Shown piece by piece: positions 3,992 through 21,761 of a stretch of 64,000 bases of DNA; the first letter of the stretch is position 1, and the number at the start of each line of letters is the position of its first letter. The translations under genes were made by a program, and so were the position numbers. Source of the DNA: an uncultured virus (IMG/VR IMGVR_UViG_3300027608_000026) (lineage: Duplodnaviria > Heunggongvirae > Uroviricota > Caudoviricetes); IMG/VR virus record IMGVR_UViG_3300027608_000026. One strand, written 5' to 3'. Under the pieces are notes generated by a model. The model saw only the letters and a list, made by a program, of their open reading frames with translations. It searched no databases and was not told the DNA's origin.

Positions 3992-4692
3992 TGAAAATTG
4001 CAATCGTGATGACTGGGCATGTAAAGGGTTGGAAGAAAACTTATGAAGGTTTACAAAACTGTGTTCTAGGTCATCATGATGTTGACCTGTATATAAGCAC
4101 ATGGGACGTAGATAATGCCGGACGAAACGGCGATAAAGATAAGTTTCCCGCAGTTGAAATTGATCCTGTTATAGAACTATACAAACCTAAAAAATATTGT
4201 ATAGAAAATCATACCAAATACCACGAAAATAGATTTCCTACAATAAGTTTTGAAGATAGAGATGATGATGTGTTCAAAGTTGACGGACATGCAAAAGGCC
4301 ACGGCTCATATTGGGTTGAAAGAATGCGTGACATGTGGTACATTATTAAACAAGGGTATCTATTAATAGACAACCCGGAAGAATACGATCTAATTATGAG
4401 ACTGAGATTTGACATAGTGTTTACCAATATTGTTTTTCAATCAACAGATGTTCCGATTTTTTTATGGGTTAACCCAGAAAAAAAACACGTTTTTGATTTA
4501 TTTGGTTACGGTCCGCCAGATGCCATGAAAATATATTTCCATGTATTTGATCACATAGAGTCTATGTACAGAAATGACAATGTAAATATTGCACACTCAG
4601 ATGAAATGCTGGGCAAGTACCTAATGACCTATAATAATATCATGCCTAAACACGATCAATCTATTACACATATCGGAGCGTGGTCTAATTGA
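3991..4692 (+). CDS. Putative glycosyltransferase-like protein
   Basis: MKIAIVMTGH..ISTWD..YDLIMRLRFD pattern typical of polysaccharide loci. Confidence 0.5.
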   Translation: MKIAIVMTGHVKGWKKTYEGLQNCVLGHHDVDLYISTWDVDNAGRNGDKDKFPAVEIDPVIELYKPKKYCIENHTKYHENRFPTISFEDRDDDVFKVDGHAKGHGSYWVERMRDMWYIIKQGYLLIDNPEEYDLIMRLRFDIVFTNIVFQSTDVPIFLWVNPEKKHVFDLFGYGPPDAMKIYFHVFDHIESMYRNDNVNIAHSDEMLGKYLMTYNNIMPKHDQSITHIGAWSN

Positions 4693-5144
4693 AATTAATT
4701 GCCCATCGAGGACTTGTTAACGGTCCAAACAAAACTTTAGAAAACCAACCTCATAACATACGATCTACATTAGATCAAGGGTACGACTGTGAAATTGACC
4801 TTTGGGTGTTCGGTGATCGATTGTATCTAGGACACGACGGTCCACAATACAATGTTACAAACGAATTCATAGCCAATCCTAAGTTATGGATACACGCTAA
4901 GAATCTTGAAGCCTTCTATTGGCTTACTGACACACAGTTAACATATTTCTGGCATGAAAACGATAAGTTTACGCTTACCAGTAATGGATACATTTGGTCG
5001 TACCCTGAGCAGGGTCTTACAAACAAAAGTATACGACTAATGCCCGAATGGGCAGATCCGGAGTTGACAACAGTAAAAGAGAGTGTATGCTATGGAGTGT
5101 GTAGTGATTACATTCTAAAAATAAATCAGCTACTTAGTGGCTAA
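4689..5144 (+). CDS. Glycerophosphodiester phosphodiesterase-like protein
   Basis: LIAHRG, EN, CEIDLW, LGHD, WIHAKN, GVCSDY. Confidence 0.75.
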   Translation: MKLIAHRGLVNGPNKTLENQPHNIRSTLDQGYDCEIDLWVFGDRLYLGHDGPQYNVTNEFIANPKLWIHAKNLEAFYWLTDTQLTYFWHENDKFTLTSNGYIWSYPEQGLTNKSIRLMPEWADPELTTVKESVCYGVCSDYILKINQLLSG

Positions 5145-5256
5145 TTTACAACACCACTGGGGTTGACAGAGATAAATAAACACTATATAATAAATACTTA
5201 GACGGTTAGGAAAGTAAGTTGTTAAAAACTATTTTGTTCAAAAGAGCAAATAGGGG

Positions 5257-5285
5257 TTGACAACAGAACTAAATAACTGTATAAT
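5257..5285 (+). promoter_or_regulatory. sigma70-type promoter for leader/tRNA array
   Basis: TTGACA-N17-TATAAT; a second TTGACA..TATAAT at 5164-5191. Confidence 0.85.
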
Positions 5286-5340
5286 TAACACATAGACAGC
5301 AATAATGCTGTTTGTGAATTTAAGGAAATTGGAAACAAAA

Positions 5341-5487
5341 ATGCAATCATTTGTAAGTCATCAGCAATTTAATACGATGCCCAAACTGGCAGGTGTAATA
5401 GCCTGTTCTTGGTTATCGATTAATGGCGGAAGTCTATCATATGATCGTACACCAGAGATTCGCAGGGTCCGGAGGACTGTCGTGTAA
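5341..5487 (+). CDS. Putative attenuator leader peptide (48 aa)
   Basis: MQSFVSHQQFNTMPKLAGVIACSWLSINGGSLSYDRTPEIRRVRRTVV; stop lies within hairpin 5464-5521. Confidence 0.65.
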   Translation: MQSFVSHQQFNTMPKLAGVIACSWLSINGGSLSYDRTPEIRRVRRTVV

Positions 5488-5515
5488 CACACAAGTTAAC
5501 ACAACAAACTTCAAG

Positions 5516-5546
5516 GACCCTAGGATTAAAAACCCTGGGGTTTTTT
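5516..5546 (+). terminator. Intrinsic terminator (attenuator)
   Basis: GACCCTAGG/CCTGGGGTT stem followed by T-run. Confidence 0.8.
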
Positions 5547-5563
5547 GTTTTCCGCAAGGAAAG

Positions 5564-5734
5564 ATGACAGAAATAGACATACGAAAACGTATTAAAGAAG
5601 CAGAGTTTACTAGACAGCATACTATTAGTCCAGAACAATTTAAAAAATTGATCGAAGACAAAATGGCTCGTGCTAAACAGTACAGCAATGCAAGGTGCAA
5701 CAAAGTGGAAACGAGGTCCACGCAACACACCTAA
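5564..5734 (+). CDS. Hypothetical protein (56 aa)
   Basis: SD AAGGA; MTEIDIRKRIKEAEF.. Confidence 0.5.
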   Translation: MTEIDIRKRIKEAEFTRQHTISPEQFKKLIEDKMARAKQYSNARCNKVETRSTQHT

Positions 5735-5928
5735 ACTAGTTGCAAACGGGCGGCGTACCGGATGGCTTATCCTTATGTGGATAAAAAAATGGTTACGTAT
5801 TAAAGCATTCTCTATCCTCCACAAGAGGTGACAAGTGGGTTCATCCATGTAGAGTGCTTTAATACACACATTCTATTTCACCTTTTGACGGTGTCAAAAC
5901 GCATAGCGGAGAGTGTGTAACAATTTTG

Positions 5929-6016
5929 GGAGCCTGTTCCCCTCAGCGGACTGTAAATCCGTTGCCTTTAATTGGGGGGTGGCTGGCGGATGGTTCGATT
6001 CCTTCAGGCTCCACCA
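5929..6016 (+). tRNA. tRNA-Tyr(GTA), reduced D-arm
   Basis: GGAGCCT/AGGCTCC-ACCA, loop CTGTAAA, TTCGATT. Confidence 0.75.
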
Positions 6017-6022
6017 AGTTAT

Positions 6023-6097
6023 GCCGTTGTAGTCCTCTGGGAGGGCACTGGATTGTCTATCCAATTAAGGCGGGTTCGATTCCCGTCGACGGCGCCA
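6023..6097 (+). tRNA. tRNA-Asp(GTC)
   Basis: loop TTGTCTA, GTTCGATTC, GCCA. Confidence 0.8.
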
Positions 6098-6104
6098 ATT
6101 TTAT

Positions 6105-6180
6105 TCCCCAGTAGCACAGCGGTAGTTGCACTTGACTGTTAATCAAGGTGTCGGTAGTTCGATCCTACCCTGGGGAGCCA
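6105..6180 (+). tRNA. tRNA-Asn(GTT)
   Basis: loop CTGTTAA, cloverleaf, GCCA. Confidence 0.9.
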
Positions 6181-6260
6181 ATTAATAAACATATTAGACG
6201 TCTGGCTAGTCCTTGGAGGCTAGTGGAATGTAGTTCTCCGGGCTAGTATGTTTTTTAATT

Positions 6261-6336
6261 GGGCTGGTAGTGATACTGGGGTACACGGGGCACTTGCAAT
6301 GCTCAGATTGGAGTTCGATCCTCCACCGGTCCACCA
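6261..6336 (+). tRNA. tRNA-Ala(TGC)
   Basis: loop CTTGCAA, G3:U70, ACCA. Confidence 0.9.
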
Positions 6337-6343
6337 AGTTAAT

Positions 6344-6429
6344 GGATAGTTGTGCGCTGGGCGCAAGCTGGTTTGCTAAACCGGTCTATTGTGAAAACGG
6401 TAACAGTTCGATTCTGTATCTATCCACCA
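6344..6429 (+). tRNA. tRNA-Ser(GCT), atypical
   Basis: loop TTGCTAA, long V-arm, short D-arm, ACCA. Confidence 0.7.
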
Positions 6430-6435
6430 GTTTGT

Positions 6436-6511
6436 TGCGGGTAAGGTCTGGTCACTACTCCGGTCTCATAAGCCAGGAGCATCGTTGGTTCGAATCCAAC
6501 ACCCGCTACCA
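6436..6511 (+). tRNA. tRNA-Met(CAT), initiator-like
   Basis: loop CTCATAA, 1:72 mismatch. Confidence 0.7.
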
Positions 6512-6516
6512 ATTTT

Positions 6517-6579
6517 AGGATCAGTTCAGCAAACTTAAAAACTTTTTTATTATTCAAAAAAACCAAAGTTGATCCTGTT
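6517..6579 (+). ncRNA. CAGCAA-scaffold RNA copy 1
   Basis: AGGATC/GATCCT-GTT closing helix, GTTCAGCAA. Confidence 0.6.
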
Positions 6580-6585
6580 GTATTT

Positions 6586-6659
6586 CCTCTTGTAGTTAAA
6601 TGGTATAACAGTCGGCTGATAACCGGCCATTACAAGTTCGATTCTTGTCGAGAGGACCA
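6586..6659 (+). tRNA. tRNA-Ile(GAT)
   Basis: loop CTGATAA. Confidence 0.9.
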
Positions 6660-6667
6660 ATTTTTAT

Positions 6668-6745
6668 GTAGGTGTGGCGGAGTGGCCCAACGCAACGGTC
6701 TGCAAAATCGTAAAACCGTCAGTTCAAATCTGACCACCTACTCCA
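6668..6745 (+). tRNA. tRNA-Cys(GCA)
   Basis: loop CTGCAAA, U73 discriminator. Confidence 0.9.
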
Positions 6746-6752
6746 AGTTAAT

Positions 6753-6829
6753 GCTCCGGTAGTGTAGCGGTTTATCACGCAACCCTGTCACGGTTGAGGT
6801 CACGGGTTCGATTCCCGTCCGGGGCGCCA
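6753..6829 (+). tRNA. tRNA-Asp(GTC)
   Basis: loop CTGTCAC. Confidence 0.92.
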
Positions 6830-6834
6830 GTTTT

Positions 6835-6897
6835 AGGATCAGTTCAGCAAACTTAAGCAACTTTCTTTTATCCAGAAACTAAAAAGTTGATCCTGTT
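6835..6897 (+). ncRNA. CAGCAA-scaffold RNA copy 2
   Basis: Ends near-identical to 6517-6579, different internal hairpin. Confidence 0.6.
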
Positions 6898-6904
6898 GTA
6901 TTTT

Positions 6905-6979
6905 ACTCACGTCGTCTAGTGGCTAGGACGCTACCCTTTCAAGGTGGAGAAGCGGGATCGATACCCGTCGTGAGTACCA
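6905..6979 (+). tRNA. tRNA-Glu(TTC)
   Basis: loop CTTTCAA; T-loop ATCGATA. Confidence 0.85.
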
Positions 6980-6985
6980 ATTTTT

Positions 6986-7059
6986 GCCCTTTTAGTTAAA
7001 TGGTATAACAACTGTTTTGTAATCAGTAATTGGCAGTTCGATTCTGTCATGGGGCACCA
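6986..7059 (+). tRNA. tRNA-Thr(TGT)
   Basis: loop TTTGTAA. Confidence 0.9.
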
Positions 7060-7065
7060 ATTTAT

Positions 7066-7140
7066 GTATCCTTAGTGTTAACGGCAGCACGACAGTCTCC
7101 AAAACTGCTAGTGGGAGTTCAAATCTCTCAGGGTACGCCA
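7066..7140 (+). tRNA. tRNA-Trp(CCA)
   Basis: loop CTCCAAA. Confidence 0.9.
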
Positions 7141-7145
7141 TTTTT

Positions 7146-7203
7146 AGGTTGCGTTCAGCAAATTCAAAAATTCAACTTTTAATTGAAAAATAAGCAACCT
7201 GTT
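7146..7203 (+). ncRNA. CAGCAA-scaffold RNA copy 3 with Lys(TTT)-like anticodon stem-loop
   Basis: AGGTTGC/GCAACCT-GTT; TTCAA-CTTTTAA-TTGAA at 7171-7187. Confidence 0.65.
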
Positions 7204-7210
7204 ATTTTGT

Positions 7211-7284
7211 TGGGGCATTGTGTAATGGTAGCACAACAGACTTTGACTCTGTTAGTTTAGGTTCGATCCCTAATGCCCCTGCCA
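7211..7284 (+). tRNA. tRNA-Gln(TTG)
   Basis: loop CTTTGAC. Confidence 0.9.
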
Positions 7285-7291
7285 GTTTTAT

Positions 7292-7367
7292 CTCTCTTTC
7301 GGTTAGCGGCTATGCCACCTGGTTTGGGGCCAGGATTTCGTGGGTTCGAGTCCCACAGGAGAGACCA
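7292..7367 (+). tRNA. tRNA-Pro(TGG)
   Basis: CCTGG-TTTGGGG-CCAGG. Confidence 0.85.
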
Positions 7368-7375
7368 AGTTCTAT

Positions 7376-7451
7376 GGTGTTAGTAGTGTAGTGGTCTGCA
7401 CATTGCTCTGTGAAAGCGATAGTATGGGATCGTTCCCCATCTAACACCCCA
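7376..7451 (+). tRNA. tRNA-His(GTG)
   Basis: G-1:C73, loop CTGTGAA. Confidence 0.85.
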
Positions 7452-7462
7452 ATAAGTTTTAT

Positions 7463-7538
7463 GCCAAGATAGCTCATCAGGTAGAGCACCAGTTTGAAGC
7501 ATTGGGTGTGGTTGGTTCGAGTCCAACTCTTGGTACCA
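7463..7538 (+). tRNA. tRNA-Phe(GAA)
   Basis: loop TTGAAGC. Confidence 0.85.
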
Positions 7539-7543
7539 GTTTT

Positions 7544-7657
7544 AGGATAGGTTCAGCAAATAACTTAACTACTTCTCTTGAAAAGAAAAGGAACGGTTCG
7601 ACTCCGTAGCCGCAAGGTTTGGTGTAACGGTAGCACTATGTTAAAAACTATCCTGTT
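7544..7657 (+). ncRNA. CAGCAA-scaffold RNA carrying a circularly permuted tRNA mimic (YrlA-like order)
   Basis: Anticodon arm(TGA), T-arm, GCAA-capped stem, D-arm inside AGGATAG/CTATCCT. Confidence 0.7.
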
Positions 7658-7675
7658 ATTTTAAAAGGAAATCAA

Positions 7676-7804
7676 ATGGCAAATGTCAAAAAAGGTAACC
7701 TAACAGCGCCTCCACAATGGTGGAAGCATTTGAAAGATTGGAAACGAGTGTTCTGGAAATCAGAACGCCAAGCACAGAAACGTAACATTAAACAAGGAGA
7801 ATGA
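7676..7804 (+). CDS. Small basic Trp-rich protein (42 aa)
   Basis: SD AAGGA; MANVKKGNLTAPPQWWKHLKDWKRVFWKSERQAQKRNIKQGE. Confidence 0.6.
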   Translation: MANVKKGNLTAPPQWWKHLKDWKRVFWKSERQAQKRNIKQGE

Positions 7805-7891
7805 CATGAAACGTTCAGGTAAACGATAGTGTCATCCTAGACCCCCGTATGGTCCTGGATGGCACGTGAAAGACAATTCTTTACGATCCAT

Positions 7892-7967
7892 CCACAGCTG
7901 GCGTTAACGGTAGCGTACTCGGCTCTTAACCGATGAGGTGTCAGTTCAAATCTGACGCTGTGGACCA
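7892..7967 (+). tRNA. tRNA-Lys(CTT)
   Basis: loop CTCTTAA. Confidence 0.85.
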
Positions 7968-7970
7968 TAT

Positions 7971-8044
7971 GGGGGTAAAACTTTAAGGTGAAGTACCGGA
8001 CTTTTAATCCGGCTAACTCGGATCGTTACCGAGTACCCCTACCA
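7971..8044 (+). tRNA. tRNA-Lys(TTT)
   Basis: loop CTTTTAA; T-loop ATCGTTA. Confidence 0.85.
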
Positions 8045-8200
8045 TATAAAAACACACTGGTCTACCGCCACCGAGAGGTAGTTAAAGACAATGACAAGCA
8101 ACAGCCAGTGTGTTTCTATATGGTGACTATATAAAAACACGCTCGCGGCTCCCGGGGCTGGGGGTACGTTGTACGACTACCCTAGAGTGTGTTTCTATAT

Positions 8201-8276
8201 GGTAACGTAGCATAGTGGCTAATGCACCACCTTCATACGGTGTTTATCGTGAGTTCGAGTCTCACCGTTACTACCA
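8201..8276 (+). tRNA. tRNA-Met or Ile2(CAT)
   Basis: loop TTCATAC. Confidence 0.85.
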
Positions 8277-8281
8277 ATTTT

Positions 8282-8356
8282 GCCCCTTTCGTATAATGGA
8301 TAATACACTAGGCTACGAACCTGGGAATGGTGGTTCGATTCCATCAGGGGGCACCA
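8282..8356 (+). tRNA. tRNA-Arg(ACG)
   Basis: loop CTACGAA. Confidence 0.9.
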
Positions 8357-8360
8357 AGTT

Positions 8361-8580
8361 TTGTAAGTGTCAGCAAGTGAAGTCACGCTGTCTAGGTTTC
8401 TTCGAAGGACCAAAGCAGTAAAAGGCAAATGGGTTCAACTCCCACCCGCGGGGAACTGCGGAGGTCCGTAACGGGGACTACGCTGGATGGATCCCAAGTG
8501 ATATCCATCGTGCTCGAGGTCAGGCTAGGCGGCCGGTAAGTCCTGAATAAATCTACGATAAATGCGGCGTAGGCTTACAA
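8361..8580 (+). ncRNA. Long CAGCAA-scaffold RNA with permuted tRNA-like domain
   Basis: TTGTAAGT/GCTTACAA ends; GGTTT-CTTCGAA-GGACC; TGGG-TTCAACT-CCCA; CCGCGG-GGAA-CTGCGG; GTCC-GTAACGG-GGAC. Confidence 0.65.
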
Positions 8581-8589
8581 ATTCAATAT

Positions 8590-8665
8590 GTCCCTATCGT
8601 CTAGTGGCCTAGGACACCAGCCTTTCACGTTGGGTACACGAGTTCGAATCTCGTTAGGGACGCCA
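8590..8665 (+). tRNA. tRNA-Glu(TTC)
   Basis: loop CTTTCAC. Confidence 0.92.
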
Positions 8666-8681
8666 TATATAGGAGTAGATC

Positions 8682-8855
8682 ATGAAAACATTATTTTTTG
8701 AAAATGTCTTTAACAAAGAAAAATTCTATTGTAAAGACACCAAAGACATCCGTGTAATAGACGGCATAGAATATCTACGAGTTTTTAAAGATGGCACACA
8801 ACGAGATTGTCTAGTAAAGAAAGATAGTCTTAGAAAAGTACAAGAAAAGAAATAA
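8682..8855 (+). CDS. Hypothetical protein (57 aa)
   Basis: SD AGGAG; MKTLFFENVFNKEKFYC.. Confidence 0.65.
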   Translation: MKTLFFENVFNKEKFYCKDTKDIRVIDGIEYLRVFKDGTQRDCLVKKDSLRKVQEKK

Positions 8856-8856
8856 T

Positions 8857-8930
8857 GCTTCGGTAGTTTAATGGCAGAACAATGCCGTGACATGGCGTAG
8901 ATGGGAGTTCAATTCTCCAACGAAGTACCA
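8857..8930 (+). tRNA. tRNA-Val(GAC)
   Basis: loop GTGACAT (unusual G32). Confidence 0.75.
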
Positions 8931-8935
8931 ATTAT

Positions 8936-9011
8936 GCGGGTAAGGTGTTTATGGATACACATCAGTCTTCCAAACTGAAGTAGACCGGTTCGATACCGGC
9001 TACCCGCTCCA
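8936..9011 (+). tRNA. tRNA-Gly(TCC)
   Basis: loop CTTCCAA, U73. Confidence 0.9.
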
Positions 9012-9012
9012 T

Positions 9013-9101
9013 GGGGGGTTATCGGGGCTGGGCCCTGCGCTGTCTTGAAAACAGATGGACTTTTAACGAGGTTGGAGTTCGATTCTACCATCCCCCCGCC
9101 A
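9013..9101 (+). tRNA. tRNA-Ser(TGA)
   Basis: loop CTTGAAA, long V-arm, G73. Confidence 0.8.
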
Positions 9102-9108
9102 AATTATT

Positions 9109-9200
9109 GCCAGCGAGACTTGGAAGTCAGAGAGGTCTTATAAGCCTTTTAGCGCCAGATTAGCGTTCTTGAGAGGGTTCGATCCCCTCCGCTGGTACCA
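9109..9200 (+). tRNA. tRNA with TAT anticodon (Ile) and long variable arm
   Basis: GAGGT-CTTATAA-GCCTT; V-arm AGCGC-CAGATTA-GCGTT. Confidence 0.75.
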
Positions 9201-9209
9201 GTTTTATTT

Positions 9210-9284
9210 CCGGCTTTCGTATAATGGAAAATACAATAGGCTTCTACCCTGTGAATAGGAGTTCGATTCTTCTAGGCCGGACCA
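9210..9284 (+). tRNA. tRNA-Arg(TCT)
   Basis: loop CTTCTAC. Confidence 0.88.
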
Positions 9285-9293
9285 AGTTTTTAT

Positions 9294-9370
9294 GCCCCGT
9301 TACGCTAATTGGTAGTGCGGATTCTCTCAAAAGGAGTTGGCTGTCTGTTCGAATCAGACACGGGGTACCA
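9294..9370 (+). tRNA. tRNA-Leu(CAA), short V-loop
   Basis: loop CTCAAAA. Confidence 0.85.
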
Positions 9371-9529
9371 GTTTAGGGATAGACGACACAATGAGTCCCA
9401 GATAGTCTAGCATGGCTTTGGTTGGCCATGTGACACCGCAGACGACTATAAGGTAGTATAAACTCTTGTGTTCGAGACAATCCGATGAGGCTTGCTAACA
9501 ACAAGATAGTCGGGCTCCCGCCTTATAAT

Positions 9530-9606
9530 GCCTTCGTACGCTAATTGGTAGTGCGGCTTGCCTTAGAAGCAGGTGGTTGGGGGTTCGAATCCGCCCGAAG
9601 GTACCA
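9530..9606 (+). tRNA. tRNA-Leu(TAG), short V-loop
   Basis: loop CTTAGAA. Confidence 0.85.
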
Positions 9607-9676
9607 AACCAGGATAGTGTGAAAGAGAACTATCGACAGTCCGTCTAGGGCCAATTGGGTGAGAAGCCCATTCAAT

Positions 9677-9753
9677 GCCCCTGTACGCTAATTGGTAGTG
9701 CGGATAGACTTAAAATCTGTTGGTTGGCGGTTCGAATCTGCCCAGGGGTACCA
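9677..9753 (+). tRNA. tRNA-Leu(TAA), short V-loop
   Basis: loop CTTAAAA. Confidence 0.85.
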
Positions 9754-9810
9754 TTACTTGTCCTGGCCAAGATAATAGAAATAAATAGAATGTTACCAAT
9801 AAGGCTTAAC

Positions 9811-10743
9811 ATGAAAAAGAAACTCTGCTTAGTATATCAACTGTTTACAAAGTGCAATATAGGTTGCAAGTATTGTTATAATTATTTTGATCAAGATGTA
9901 CGTCCTTTCAATTATTATACATCTAAAGTTGGTAAACTCTTAGAATTATACCATGATGAAACTTGTTTTGTTTTAAATGGTGGTGAGCCCTTGTTGCTTA
10001 AAGGATTTCAACATCTAGTAAATCAAGCGACTGAGAAGGCAAAAACATATACCTATACTAACGGTACTCTAAGCACATGGCACTATAAGAGATTTATTGA
10101 TAGTCTTGAGCACAAAGACAAGTTTTACATGACAATCAGTTTACACTTTATGGAAGTGCTAAGAGATAACAAGTTACCGGACAAATACTTTAAAAATATT
10201 GAACTTTTTGCTAAGAATATTCCCAACTTAAAAATCAACCTAGTAGTTGATGAAGAGTTTCAAGGTGAATACTTGCAAGTGATTAGACAAACTATGAGAG
10301 AAATTAAACAAAGAACTTCTCTTAAGAATGTTAATATTTTGATTGCAGATCACATGTATGAAGATGAATTTAAACTATTACGTGTGTTAAATCAAGATTT
10401 TATTGACTTTGTTGAAGAAATTGACAGTAATTTTGCTTATAAAAATTGCATGTGGGACAATACCAGACAATCATTAACAGAAATGATTAAAGACATAAAA
10501 GAAAATATTGTGCTAAAGTTAGCCGGAAAGGATTTTAAGATTCCGTATGAATATGAATTTGGACAAATATTTTTTCTAGAAAGTCCCGAAGGAATGATTG
10601 TTCAGGAATTTTTCGGTGAAGGACGTCAAGAACATAAAATACCGTTTGATCAATTTGACGCATTTGTTGAAGATATCAAACCAAAAGTACAAAGCAAGCC
10701 TCTTAGAAAAATTACAACATTATCCTCTGTTGGAATAATCTAA
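9811..10743 (+). CDS. Radical SAM protein
   Basis: CNIGCKYC (CxxxCxxC), GGEP, YTNGT; the longer ORF-track start overlaps tRNA-Leu. Confidence 0.85.
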   Translation: MKKKLCLVYQLFTKCNIGCKYCYNYFDQDVRPFNYYTSKVGKLLELYHDETCFVLNGGEPLLLKGFQHLVNQATEKAKTYTYTNGTLSTWHYKRFIDSLEHKDKFYMTISLHFMEVLRDNKLPDKYFKNIELFAKNIPNLKINLVVDEEFQGEYLQVIRQTMREIKQRTSLKNVNILIADHMYEDEFKLLRVLNQDFIDFVEEIDSNFAYKNCMWDNTRQSLTEMIKDIKENIVLKLAGKDFKIPYEYEFGQIFFLESPEGMIVQEFFGEGRQEHKIPFDQFDAFVEDIKPKVQSKPLRKITTLSSVGII

Positions 10744-10905
10744 TCACAAATTATTGATAAAGCGAAGTGCTTTGTTGACGTTGGTAAAATATCGCACAGT
10801 TAGTTCTATATCGTAGATATCTCGAACCATAACGATGCAGACACCCTCATGTAATGATAGATGAAAGTGTAATCCTCCGGGGGTAACGCTTTCGTATGTC
10901 TTCAT
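10744..10905 (-). CDS. Hypothetical protein (53 aa)
   Basis: MKTYESVTPGG..; TAAATA motif upstream on - strand. Confidence 0.45.
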   Translation of the reverse strand: MKTYESVTPGGLHFHLSLHEGVCIVMVRDIYDIELTVRYFTNVNKALRFINNL

Positions 10906-10946
10906 ACAAATATTTACCGCTTTCGTACCTAGGGGTACCAATCATT

Positions 10947-11020
10947 GCTCTTATAGTTTAATGGAAGAACACTGTCTTGGTATGACAGGAATCGTAGTTC
11001 GATTCTACGTTAGAGCACCA
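10947..11020 (+). tRNA. tRNA-Thr(GGT)
   Basis: loop TTGGTAT. Confidence 0.88.
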
Positions 11021-11078
11021 AAAGGTATTGACAATAAATTAGATTTACTGTATAATCAATACATAAAGGAATTAAACA

Positions 11079-11318
11079 ATGGCACGTATTACAAGTCAGT
11101 TAGCAGTTGAACAAATTGGTAATAGATACGATCTAGTATTAGTTGCATCTATTCGTGCCCGGGAATTAACACGGGGACACATGCCTTTGGTAAGTAAGAA
11201 AGGTGGGCCAATTGTTACAGCCCTACGAGAAATTGAAGAAGGAAAAATCGGAAAAGATTATTTGTTAAAACTCAAAAAAGACGCAAGTAAAAATTATCGC
11301 GGGTTAGAGAAACGGTAA
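11079..11318 (+). CDS. rpoZ: RNA polymerase omega subunit homolog
   Basis: MARIT..IGNRYDLVLVASIRAREL..PIVTALREIEEG; own TTGACA..TATAAT promoter. Confidence 0.9.
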   Translation: MARITSQLAVEQIGNRYDLVLVASIRARELTRGHMPLVSKKGGPIVTALREIEEGKIGKDYLLKLKKDASKNYRGLEKR

Positions 11319-11371
11319 CTCACGAGTCTCATAAGCTCGAGATCCTGGTTCGATTCCGGGACCCGCAACCA
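11298..11371 (+). tRNA. tRNA-fMet(CAT)
   Basis: C1xA72 mismatch, loop CTCATAA; overlaps rpoZ 3' end. Confidence 0.85.
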
Positions 11372-11375
11372 GTTT

Positions 11376-11437
11376 AGGTTAATTACAGCGATTTAAAAAT
11401 GGCGACTGCTAGGTCATTAAACTAGTATTAACCTGTT
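11376..11437 (+). ncRNA. CAGCAA-scaffold RNA variant
   Basis: AGGTTAAT/ATTAACCT-GTT, TACAGCGA. Confidence 0.5.
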
Positions 11438-11443
11438 GAATTT

Positions 11444-11528
11444 TGCCCCGGTGGTGTAATGGTAGCCACGCTGGTCTTAGAAGCCAGTGTCGAAAGGCGT
11501 GTCGGTTCGAGTCCGACCTGGGGCACCA
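11444..11528 (+). tRNA. tRNA-Leu(TAG), canonical long V-arm
   Basis: loop CTTAGAA. Confidence 0.92.
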
Positions 11529-11693
11529 ATAATTGATAGCTCTCGGCAGGTATCGTATATGGACGCATATACTACACGACATCCACTGGCATGGTGCGAA
11601 GTCTAATATAACTGCTGTTAGATGCTTTGGAACTGTTAGCGCAGGACTCCTAAATAGACACGTTGTCATAGACGGCGAGTGCTATCAATTATT

Positions 11694-11783
11694 GGTGTGG
11701 TCCTATAATGGTATTAGAGCAGATTGCTAATCTGTCGGTCGGCGTAATCCGGCTTCTGAGTTCGAGTCTCAGTCACACCGCCA
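11694..11783 (+). tRNA. tRNA-Ser(GCT)
   Basis: loop TTGCTAA, long V-arm, G73. Confidence 0.88.
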
Positions 11784-11802
11784 ATTTTTTTAAGAGGTAA
11801 TA

Positions 11803-11988
11803 ATGTATATTAAACCAGGTCCTAGTTACAAAATGAGTTCACAAGCAAAGCGATTTGCGGCACAAATCCTTGATCCACATAAGCGTGGAGAGTTTTTACG
11901 TAGTACAGTTCAAGCAGAACTTGCATCGTTGATTAAACCCGTCAGGGAGAAAAAGACTCGTACTGAGTCGGATGTAGGAAGTGATTGA
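11803..11988 (+). CDS. Hypothetical protein
   Basis: SD GAGG, ORF track. Confidence 0.6.
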   Translation: MYIKPGPSYKMSSQAKRFAAQILDPHKRGEFLRSTVQAELASLIKPVREKKTRTESDVGSD

Positions 11989-12221
11989 TGTCTAAAGGAA
12001 GTAGACCTCGTCCATATAGTGTTAGCCAAGAAAAGTTTGGCAATAACTATGATGCAATTTTTGGAAAGAGAAATATGTCACCAAGTGTAGAAGAAATGAA
12101 AAAAGGTACATGCGGTTGCGGCCGCAGTCCAACTGGTAATTGTTGCGGTTGGCACGGCTTGACAGAAGAACAATATCAAGCTAGACTAGCAGAATATATT
12201 GCAGAAAAAACTGACGAATAA
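11988..12221 (+). CDS. Small protein with CDGSH-like Fe-S motif
   Basis: CGCGRSPTGNCCGWH resembles CxCxxS...CDGSH. Confidence 0.55.
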   Translation: MSKGSRPRPYSVSQEKFGNNYDAIFGKRNMSPSVEEMKKGTCGCGRSPTGNCCGWHGLTEEQYQARLAEYIAEKTDE

Positions 12222-12227
12222 GATATT

Positions 12228-12302
12228 GCCTGGTTAGCTCAGGGGTAGAGCAACGCCTTTACACGGCGAAGGTCCGCGGTTCGAAACCGTGACCAGGTAC
12301 CA
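12228..12302 (+). tRNA. tRNA-Val(TAC)
   Basis: loop TTTACAC. Confidence 0.92.
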
Positions 12303-12307
12303 GTAGT

Positions 12308-12556
12308 ATGATAGATTACATTACAACATTTTTTGCAATTTTTTTACTTGACGTTGTGTATACTTACTATCTGCGATGTGTAGCAAATGACAATGTGCTG
12401 GGAGCAAGTTTTTGGTCAGTAGCATGTTATATATTAGGAAGCATAGCAGTTATAAATTATACAACTAACCATTGGTTGATGATTCCGGCAATGGCAGGTG
12501 CGTTTTGCGGAACTTATGTTGGAATGAAAATTAGAAAGAAGAATAACGGTGTGTAG
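12308..12556 (+). CDS. Small membrane protein
   Basis: Three hydrophobic segments. Confidence 0.6.
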   Translation: MIDYITTFFAIFLLDVVYTYYLRCVANDNVLGASFWSVACYILGSIAVINYTTNHWLMIPAMAGAFCGTYVGMKIRKKNNGV

Positions 12557-12623
12557 CTCAGCTTGGTAGAGCTCTGCGTTTGGGACGCAGTGGTCGCATG
12601 TTCGAATCGTGTCACACCGACCA
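12547..12623 (+). tRNA. tRNA-Pro(TGG)
   Basis: CTGCG-TTTGGGA-CGCAG. Confidence 0.9.
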
Positions 12624-21032: not shown

Positions 21033-21386
21033 ATGTCAGACTATCAGTTGGTCTGTTCTTTGATTAAAACTCAAGAACAAGTTGTTTACGATTACACCAA
21101 AAATAAATGCAGTCTTATATTCACTGTATCCGTAATTAAAAACAAAGTTCGGTCTAAAAAAATCTCCACAGCAGTTTTCAAGTATGATAGAGATAACAAA
21201 TGGTATCCGCATCACATTGAAGTATATTCCGGTTACAAACGAACGGGTGTTGCCACGGTGATGTACGACATTGTGCAAAGTGAGATTGACGGAGTACTAG
21301 TTCCAAGCGATGAACAAAGCGATGCGGCCCGAGAGTTTTGGCGTAACAGGTTATTGACAACTCCTCTGAATAAATATATACTGTAG
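21033..21386 (+). CDS. GNAT-like acetyltransferase
   Basis: IEV..GYKRTGVATVMY, QSDAAREFW. Confidence 0.55.
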   Translation: MSDYQLVCSLIKTQEQVVYDYTKNKCSLIFTVSVIKNKVRSKKISTAVFKYDRDNKWYPHHIEVYSGYKRTGVATVMYDIVQSEIDGVLVPSDEQSDAAREFWRNRLLTTPLNKYIL

Positions 21387-21702
21387 GTTATTGCTGTATG
21401 AAGCAAAGAGAAAAGTGTTCTGGACGGGGGTGCGAATCCCCCCATCTCCACCATAAGCATACTAGGTCGTTGAGTTAAAAAGTCGCATGTGATGCGCTCA
21501 GACTAAAATAGTATGCTTTTGATGGGGATGCATAGTTTCGACAGGGCAACAAGTAAATGAGTGGACAGCTCGGGAAAGCAGAACCCGTAGGATTGGGGTA
21601 ACTCGGTCGTAGAAGCACAACACGTAAACGCAAACGACGAACAGTTCGCATTGGCCGCCTAACAGCCGCCTAGGGTAGGAAATACCTCGTAACAGAAACC
21701 AC
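21387..21702 (+). ncRNA. ssrA: Circularly permuted (two-piece) tmRNA, tag ANDEQFALAA
   Basis: Acceptor piece with CATCTCC-A-CCA ends 21453; coding piece starts GGGGATG 21524 (G3:U70); tag 21630-21662. Confidence 0.92.
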
Positions 21703-21703
21703 C

Positions 21704-21729
21704 AAGCCCACTTCGGTGGGCTTTTTTTT
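21704..21729 (+). terminator. Intrinsic terminator
   Basis: AGCCCAC-TTCG-GTGGGCT followed by T-run. Confidence 0.9.
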
Positions 21730-21761
21730 GACTAAATAGCAGATAACAAGGATAAAATATC

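Follow-up and report, generated by a model that had tools for sequence, protein, structure and literature searches.

A putative transcription attenuator with a leader peptide of all 20 amino acids at the head of a phage tRNA array

Classical leader-peptide attenuators (trpL, hisL, pheL, leuL, thrL, and ilvL) contain codon runs specifying between one and three amino acids, which match the product of the operon, and they also carry a 1:2 structure, which is a pause or anti-antiterminator hairpin. A single codon per amino acid would mean low sensitivity in attenuators of this class, a point that counts against the attenuator reading proposed below. The T-box riboswitch recognises a single specific uncharged tRNA by direct binding, without any need for translation. 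The classical attenuators of amino-acid operons have been modelled (PMC1183508). The known system closest to the present one is the attenuator of the mycobacterial whiB7 uORF, in which efficient translation leads to a Rho-independent terminator, and stalling leads to an antiterminator and read-through (PMC10274678). According to the same source, the range of starvations to which it responds is set by the composition of the uORF, and a response requires no more than one Trp codon. A full-text search of open-access papers and bioRxiv found no leader of such a kind ahead of phage tRNA genes.

The window (the whole stretch of DNA analysed here, 64,000 nucleotides) comes from a large uncultivated phage and contains 37 tRNA genes and a tmRNA, as detected by ARAGORN. 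The initial annotation had described a promoter, a 48-codon ORF (5341-5487), the arms of a hairpin, and a terminator, and all of them were found at those coordinates (Table 1). The two perfect promoters (5163-5191 and 5257-5285) are 94 nt apart, are each preceded by GGGG, and are both directed at the leader. The ribosome-binding region of the leader ORF (5322-5336) is purine-rich and weak. The 5' arm of the terminator overlaps the 3' arm of the antiterminator hairpin, with a GGACCCY segment common to both helices, and the terminator pairing 5516-5524/5534-5542 can be read directly from the sequence. The minimum-free-energy fold of the leader contains the long hairpin (-82.7 kcal/mol, z = -4.75), and none of 200 shuffles was as good. 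In the window, the antiterminator conformer has an energy of -32.7 kcal/mol versus -30.6 kcal/mol for the terminator-forced conformer, with a pair probability of 0.96 for the antiterminator. When the bases through 5497 were blocked, mimicking a ribosome at the stop codon, the terminator fold was obtained. The close energies of the conformers and the appearance of the terminator upon blocking of the 5' arm show that the predicted antiterminator and terminator compete, in line with the earlier proposal that the two structures are mutually exclusive.

Table 1. Predicted features of the leader and of the genes downstream (positions in the window)
Feature	Position	Strand	Remarks
Upstream tandem sigma-70-type promoter	5163..5191	+	TTGACA-17-TATAAT; 12/12 consensus matches
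Leader promoter	5257..5285	+	TTGACA-17-TATAAT; 12/12 consensus matches
5'-terminal stem-loop of leader transcript	5291..5316	+	Fold -14.1 kcal/mol
Leader ORF	5341..5487	+	48 codons; 20/20 amino acids; 38 distinct codons; stop codon 5485-5487
Antiterminator hairpin	5464..5521	+	Outer helix AGGGUCC 5464-5470/GGACCCU 5515-5521; inner helices contain stop codon 5485-5487
Intrinsic terminator	5513..5551	+	12-bp stem 5513-5524/5534-5545; T-run 5541-5551
Small ORF, putatively the first gated gene	5564..5734	+	56 aa; strong ribosome-binding site 5557-5562
tRNA array	5928..12623	+	Class II tRNA candidate (GUA), then 33 ARAGORN tRNAs 6023-12623

Homologs of the element were collected in three ways. An exact match to the 26-base terminator stretch was present in 45 viral contigs, the flanks of which are 45-80% identical to the window; the leader peptide yielded 43 homologous clusters (60-92% identity); and a protein-anchored search added 80 loci with variant terminators. 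The combined set of 123 leader extracts was reduced to 75 distinct sequences, all from uncultivated freshwater phages. The attenuator anatomy that had been claimed for the window, i.e. a leader ORF, an antiterminator and a terminator sharing GGACCCY, and a stop codon within the hairpin, is kept in all 75 distinct homologs. Their leader ORFs comprise 42-55 codons, with the ATG at one common column in 75/75. The ORF invariably ends 17-32 nt ahead of GGACCC (75/75), and the stop codon, at a depth of 21-34 nt within the hairpin, falls in the 5' arm in 75/75. A promoter with at least 11/12 consensus matches occupies the equivalent place in 70/75 homologs, and 97% of the 74 leaders with a placeable promoter (74/75) possess a hairpin of -6 kcal/mol or lower in the first 36 nt, the stem sequences of which differ. 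The two most diverged leaders, L069 and L074, have only 6-10 nt from the -10 box to the ATG and are nearly leaderless; they are also the two representatives lacking Phe.

The element occupies a consistent genomic position. For 42 of the 45 loci identified by the terminator match, a same-strand tRNA array starts 158-553 nt downstream; the sequence of the remaining three stops after 151-495 nt, and a tRNA upstream of the element was seen in only one of the 45. Among the distinct leaders, 71/75 have a same-strand downstream tRNA in the available sequence, at a median gap of 413 nt. The proposal that the element gates the tRNA array is borne out insofar as the element always heads a same-strand array, but the array is not directly adjacent, as it is separated from the element by the small ORF (5564-5734) and a further 190 nt or so. 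A homolog of the 56-aa ORF (48-58 aa) is found immediately 3' of the terminator in 49/75 loci, and this charged family has a common core, ...HTL(S/T)xE(Q/D)FxKLI..K..RA..Y. No family could be assigned to the small ORF by searches of PHROGs, Pfam, and the protein atlas; its best Pfam match, the anticodon-binding domain of class I Glu/Gln tRNA synthetases, has an E value of 0.029 and is below the cut-off. The spacer between the small ORF and the first tRNA (5735-5930) can form a long stem from an inverted repeat at approximately 5797-5865 (-55.7 kcal/mol, z = -2.59). A promoter-like site with 11/12 matches on the minus strand (5870-5897) faces back to the small ORF and the leader and could yield an antisense RNA.

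The interval from the terminator to the first tRNA contains no promoter-like site of at least 10/12 matches in 56/71 loci. A site of at least 11/12 matches is present there in the other 15/71 and could bypass the gate, which speaks against the attenuator reading. The gene upstream of the leader (4689-5144) has 64 relatives on viral contigs, none of which is followed by the leader (tblastn, best E = 0.48), and no tRNA was present downstream, within 4 kb or less, in 63 of the 64, the one exception being distant. Since the relatives of the upstream gene are followed neither by the leader nor, with this one exception, by tRNAs, the leader and the array appear to constitute a separate module. In cultured phages (50,697 phage records, blastn and tblastn), only chance-level matches were obtained (E of 0.9 or worse). 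An Rfam scan of the leader likewise gave no match at the gathering score and only chance matches up to E = 10, and the leader peptide had no match in PHROGs and Pfam and no usable match in the protein atlas. The nearest record, G001, stops at window position 5750, and the leader is absent from it.

The array begins with a probable class II tRNA with the anticodon GUA (Tyr) at 5928-6013, which has an encoded CCA and was not called by ARAGORN; it scores 29.3 bits against the Rfam tRNA-Sec model (E = 0.0015). A tRNA-Tyr is the first tRNA of the array in 25/71 related loci. A radical SAM-domain protein gene (9655-10743) is lodged among the tRNAs of the array, and a third perfect consensus promoter (11028-11056) lies within the tRNA region, followed by a 79-aa ORF (region 11028-11318) that matches the RNA polymerase subunit Rpb6/omega (PF01192, E = 3.6e-16). 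Additional tRNAs and the tmRNA are located downstream of 12623. The tmRNA (21340-21753) is of the betaproteobacterial type (RF01850, 117.9 bits), with the tag peptide ANDEQFALAA, and the leader is present on a single contig of 6.2 kb in the bin of a Polynucleobacter MAG. The tmRNA type and this contig hint at a betaproteobacterial host. Synechococcus phage S-SKS1 encodes a protein that shares 46% identity with one of the neighbouring proteins. This phage, a distant relative, was considered as a counterpart and rejected; ahead of its array of 10 tRNAs are a 71-aa ORF and a promoter-like site, but no comparable leader.

RNA data were also inspected. Parts of the stretch are contained in 23 RNA runs. 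Contigs of four lake metatranscriptomes cover the leader, and the summed depth over 5278-5547 is far above that on either side, although contig depth sums relatives and cannot reveal RNA 3' ends, and the peak may thus be one of summed relatives. The RNA contigs start at 5286 in three of the four metatranscriptomes. The contig starts and the depth peak give a weak hint of expression from the leader promoter. The RNA contig breaks at 5522-5538 were dismissed as termination evidence, since they lie in the segment common to the relatives.

The predicted RNA structures were evaluated on the alignment of the 75 leaders. The antiterminator helices, as we had specified them, pair in 84.4% of the alignment cells, compared with 28-51% for slid partners. 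Changes on both sides were observed in 12 of the 18 antiterminator pairs, and the covariation score was 0.270, compared with 0.167 +/- 0.008 in shuffles, none of 500 of which reached 0.270. At the outermost position of the helix, 51 rows carry A-U, 15 carry G-C, and 7 carry G-U, and A-C never occurs; the 3' base of this pair also switches U.G to C-G within the terminator. Direct reading revealed a lineage in which GGGTCC/GGACCC is replaced by GGGTTC/GAACCC and a different lineage with an altered inner terminator stem. The terminator pairs in 99.5% of the cells over 73 distinct rows, and the formal count gave both-sided changes in none of its 12 pairs. Hence, of the covariation anticipated for both helices, that of the antiterminator was found and that of the terminator was not; judging from the alignment, the predicted terminator is backed by conservation and canonical form, not by covariation. 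The shared GGACCC segment is invariant, with flanks that are 45-80% identical.

The mean energies over the 75 leaders were -24.1 kcal/mol for the antiterminator alone and -16.1 kcal/mol for the terminator alone. The joint minimum-free-energy fold without a ribosome contains the antiterminator in 50/75 leaders and the terminator in 25/75, the latter being unfavourable to the attenuator reading. RNAalifold applied to the codon-aligned ORFs of the 75 leaders predicted no conserved structure in the ORF body, and no conserved pair that could serve as a pause or anti-antiterminator (1:2) hairpin was found there.

The most distinctive property of the leader ORF is the completeness of its amino-acid composition. 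Our recount for the window gave the same 38 distinct codons and 20 amino acids as had been claimed, and both are above chance: background windows of 48 codons (n = 10,767, from 47 long ORFs of the window) contain 28.8 +/- 2.7 distinct codons, only 0.07% of them reach 38, and 1.7% encode all 20 amino acids. Across the homologs, 69/75 leaders encode all 20 amino acids and the other six encode 19. Among 17 representatives sharing less than 70% identity, with identities to the window as low as 17%, 15 hold all 20 and the other two lack only Phe. Within-column shuffles of the residues gave 3.3 +/- 1.5 complete sequences out of the 17 (maximum 9 in 5000). A tree-aware simulation that started from the peptide of the window, used residue frequencies specific to each site, and left the sites uncoupled gave 26.7 +/- 6.0 complete tips out of 75 (maximum 47 in 400) at a mean identity of 0.67 (observed, 0.64). 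Even at a mean identity of 0.87, 69 complete tips were reached in just 1.25% of the runs. The simulation expects 21.7 tips without Cys; two were observed.

The rare residues move to other columns and are seldom dropped altogether. Cys is single-copy in 65/75 leaders and is spread over 12 different columns, and the single Tyr, His, and Lys occur in 4, 6, and 5 columns, respectively. Leaders in which SYDR has lost its Tyr usually have one ahead of Trp instead (TAT at column 23; 14 cases with a non-Tyr column 36). ATG and ATA swap between two sites, as do CCC and GCC. The relocation of Cys, Tyr, His, and Lys instead of their loss indicates that completeness is maintained. A second sample was drawn from 50%-identity cluster representatives of 1.84 billion proteins; of its 39 matches, three long proteins and two aberrant reads were excluded. 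The remaining 34 leader-like matches comprise 26 with 20 amino acids and eight with 19, though this sample overlaps the same phage population and so lacks full independence. The small ORF family next to the leader, which is of similar length, served as an internal control: its members contain 14-19 distinct amino acids, and 0/49 reach 20. These comparative patterns led us to conclude that selection keeps all 20 amino acids in the leader. In 61/75 leaders, the codons that complete the set of 20 all lie 9 nt or more ahead of the hairpin.

Completeness at the codon level was also considered. By the phage's own anticodons, the codons fall into 31 decoding families, of which the window leader covers 28 (background, 21.3 +/- 2.2, with 0.17% reaching 28). 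Coverage across the homologs is 24-30 of 31, and Lys-CTT and Leu-CAA are present in only 11% and 24% of the leaders, respectively. Completeness is therefore assigned to the amino-acid level, not to the codon or isoacceptor level. The idea that a stall at almost any codon would be sensed is backed for the 20 amino acids, for which selection is apparent, and not for individual codons. More distinct codons than the peptide predicts were found with P < 0.05 in five of 11 leaders, and P was 0.65-0.73 in three, the codon usage of the window being applied to all. The rare codons that the initial annotation had singled out (ATA, CTA, AGG, CGG, TCG, and ACG) proved to come mostly from the G+C-rich hairpin; no enrichment of rare codons was found in codons 2-40 (0.708 vs 0.733 +/- 0.063). 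A candidate explanation in which the composition of the leader mirrors the tRNA set of the array was rejected, because leaders without Cys or Val precede arrays encoding tRNA-Cys or tRNA-Val (2/2 informative cases; two more fragments were too incomplete to judge).

The anatomy kept in 75/75 homologs, the position before the arrays, and the selection for 20 amino acids lend partial support to an attenuator with broad sensing. We propose that the element is probably a ribosome-mediated transcription attenuator heading the tRNA array, whose all-20 leader would report a shortage of any charged tRNA; the complete amino-acid set points to such a broad sensing of the charged-tRNA supply. The consensus promoter would start a transcript carrying the 5' stem-loop and the ORF of 42-55 codons. 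As long as the hairpin is free of the ribosome, the long hairpin would form first, hold GGACCCY, and block the terminator, and RNA polymerase would continue into the small gene and the tRNAs. Upon fast translation of the leader to the stop codon, the ribosome would keep the 5' arm of the hairpin unwound, and GGACCCY would then pair with the downstream CCUGGGG, ending transcription at the T-run. A ribosome stalled at any codon ahead of the hairpin, a stretch that encodes all 20 amino acids, would leave the antiterminator intact. The circuit would thus be a negative feedback, in which any scarce tRNA leads to more transcription of the array and plentiful tRNA leads to termination. Points that weigh against this reading include the small energy difference of the two conformers, a terminator free of covariation, the lack of a conserved 1:2 hairpin in the ORF body, the gaps in isoacceptor coverage, and the leaders that omit Cys or Val ahead of arrays encoding the corresponding tRNA.

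A more specific role for this putative attenuator, in inducible counter-defence, seems rather doubtful to us. According to PMC12409363, bacterial immunity commonly targets tRNAs, and the tRNAs of phages are an answer to this. The leader might then act as an alarm for all tRNAs: when a tRNA-cleaving immune nuclease of the host, or another insult, removes one tRNA species, the hungry codon would stall the ribosome in the leader and flip the switch, the whole replacement set of tRNAs would be transcribed, and expression would be shut off once translation of the leader recovers.

The same anatomy would also be compatible with a sensor of general coupling, which would read the closeness of the ribosome to RNA polymerase (availability, host shut-off, or elongation rate) and for which codon identity would be irrelevant. 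The ribosome-binding site is weak across the leaders (-3.5 kcal/mol on average, with 25% of the leaders reaching -4 or lower), which is a further point against the attenuator reading, and such a site would make the initiation rate the variable in a coupling sensor. The incomplete isoacceptor coverage is also in keeping with it. We nevertheless consider a coupling sensor unlikely, because it leaves unexplained the maintenance of a complete amino-acid set and the relocation of single residues.

The leader peptide itself is conserved to a greater extent than had been predicted. Poor amino-acid conservation had been expected, but 17 columns are invariant in 44 sequences, including W24, D35, R36, P38, and E39. 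At two columns, Ser is encoded by either TCA or AGT in the manner of a swap (60 vs 4), and the Leu codons vary among CTA, TTA, and CTG. From these codon switches, we conclude that the leader ORF is under selection at the amino-acid level. Over GGGTCC, the leaders use two different frames for the C-terminal tail (RVR... or GS...), which indicates that the tail is constrained as RNA. The codons GAT CGY ACA CCA GAG ATT (DRTPEI; 5443-5460 in the window) are nearly invariant, synonymous sites included, across otherwise diverged leaders, and may possibly represent a pause, arrest, or spacing element. With W and DRTPE fixed, the conservation exceeds what composition alone would need, and this counts against the attenuator reading. 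It raises the alternative that the nascent peptide is the sensor: the motif W...S-x-D-R-T-P-E would stall the ribosome on a particular signal, as in TnaC and SecM, and the full set of amino acids would be secondary. The invariant residues and the scarcity of synonymous variation in DRTPE fit this alternative, as does the length of the conserved block, which is approximately that of one exit tunnel and ends 6-10 nt ahead of the hairpin. An arrest peptide nevertheless seems quite unlikely, since it does not account for the relocation of Cys, Tyr, His, and Lys and the 20/20 completeness, the leader peptide matches no known family, and the diverged leaders L069, L074, and L075 lack DRTPE yet retain the same anatomy.

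Least probable of all is a conventional gene for a small protein that has a terminator of its own, in which case the peptide would act in trans, the hairpin would stabilise or process the RNA, the helix overlap would have no regulatory use, and the tRNA array would be expressed through leak-through or its own promoters: the amino-acid-level selection on a conserved peptide, the strong promoter-like site after the terminator in 15/71 loci, and the terminator without covariation agree with such a gene, but a stop codon inside the hairpin in 75/75, a shared segment that is invariant between flanks of 45-80% identity, a tail constrained as RNA, a single Cys wandering over 12 columns in a manner unlike the evolution of functional proteins, and the 56/71 loci without a promoter-like site of at least 10/12 after the terminator do not.

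If the proposed attenuator is real, it would be the first regulator to be described for the tRNA array of a phage, as well as the first attenuator with a complete 20-amino-acid test sequence visibly maintained by evolution. It bears on the reason for the near-complete tRNA sets of large phages and on the control of these sets. The idea that phage tRNAs compensate for shortage would become a testable circuit, with the prediction that deletion of one codon should abolish one response. At about 260 nt, the element is compact and could be ported to a reporter as a general sensor of the charged-tRNA supply. Single residues that relocate without vanishing would also constitute a new kind of functional evidence for small ORFs.

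The relationship of the element to known systems can now be specified. It resembles the trpL-type attenuators in its short ORF, its strand-sharing antiterminator and terminator, a stop codon at which a terminating ribosome would occlude the antiterminator, and the location of an intrinsic terminator ahead of the genes. It differs from them in that many amino acids are single-copy in the leader and codon runs are absent, in that no 1:2 structure is conserved, and in that the regulated genes would be tRNAs. Among the attenuator features, the element thus possesses a leader ORF (predicted to be translated), an intrinsic terminator, a base-sharing antiterminator, and the appropriate stop placement, and lacks a cognate codon run and a 1:2 structure. 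As in the T-box riboswitch, the charged-tRNA supply would govern a choice between terminator and antiterminator before translation-related genes; the phage leader, however, contains an ORF under amino-acid-level selection and has no T-box or other Rfam match. Its conserved peptide with fixed Trp, Asp, and Pro, in an ORF that would control downstream expression, is reminiscent of the arrest-peptide leaders TnaC and SecM (for TnaC, PMC8429421). The phage leader matches them neither in sequence nor in spacing; TnaC acts via Rho and a stall at its own stop codon, and TnaC and SecM are not known for the complete composition seen in the phage leader.

The comparison with whiB7 is the closest. No sequence relationship between the phage leader and the whiB7 uORF was seen in the family and protein-atlas searches. 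The whiB7 system belongs to a cellular host (Actinobacteria) and controls a transcription factor (PMC10274678), whereas the genes downstream of the phage element are a small ORF and a tRNA array, and neither the Ala enrichment nor the WhiB7 control applies to the phage leader. The diverse uORF composition is shared, with 20/20 amino acids in 69/75 leaders, and sensing by the phage leader is suggested by analogy with what is described for whiB7 in PMC10274678. According to that description, the whiB7 uORF varies greatly and contains 25-40% Ala, and the M. tuberculosis version lacks several amino acids. In the phage leader, by contrast, Ala accounts for only 1-4 residues, and the full set of 20 amino acids is maintained.
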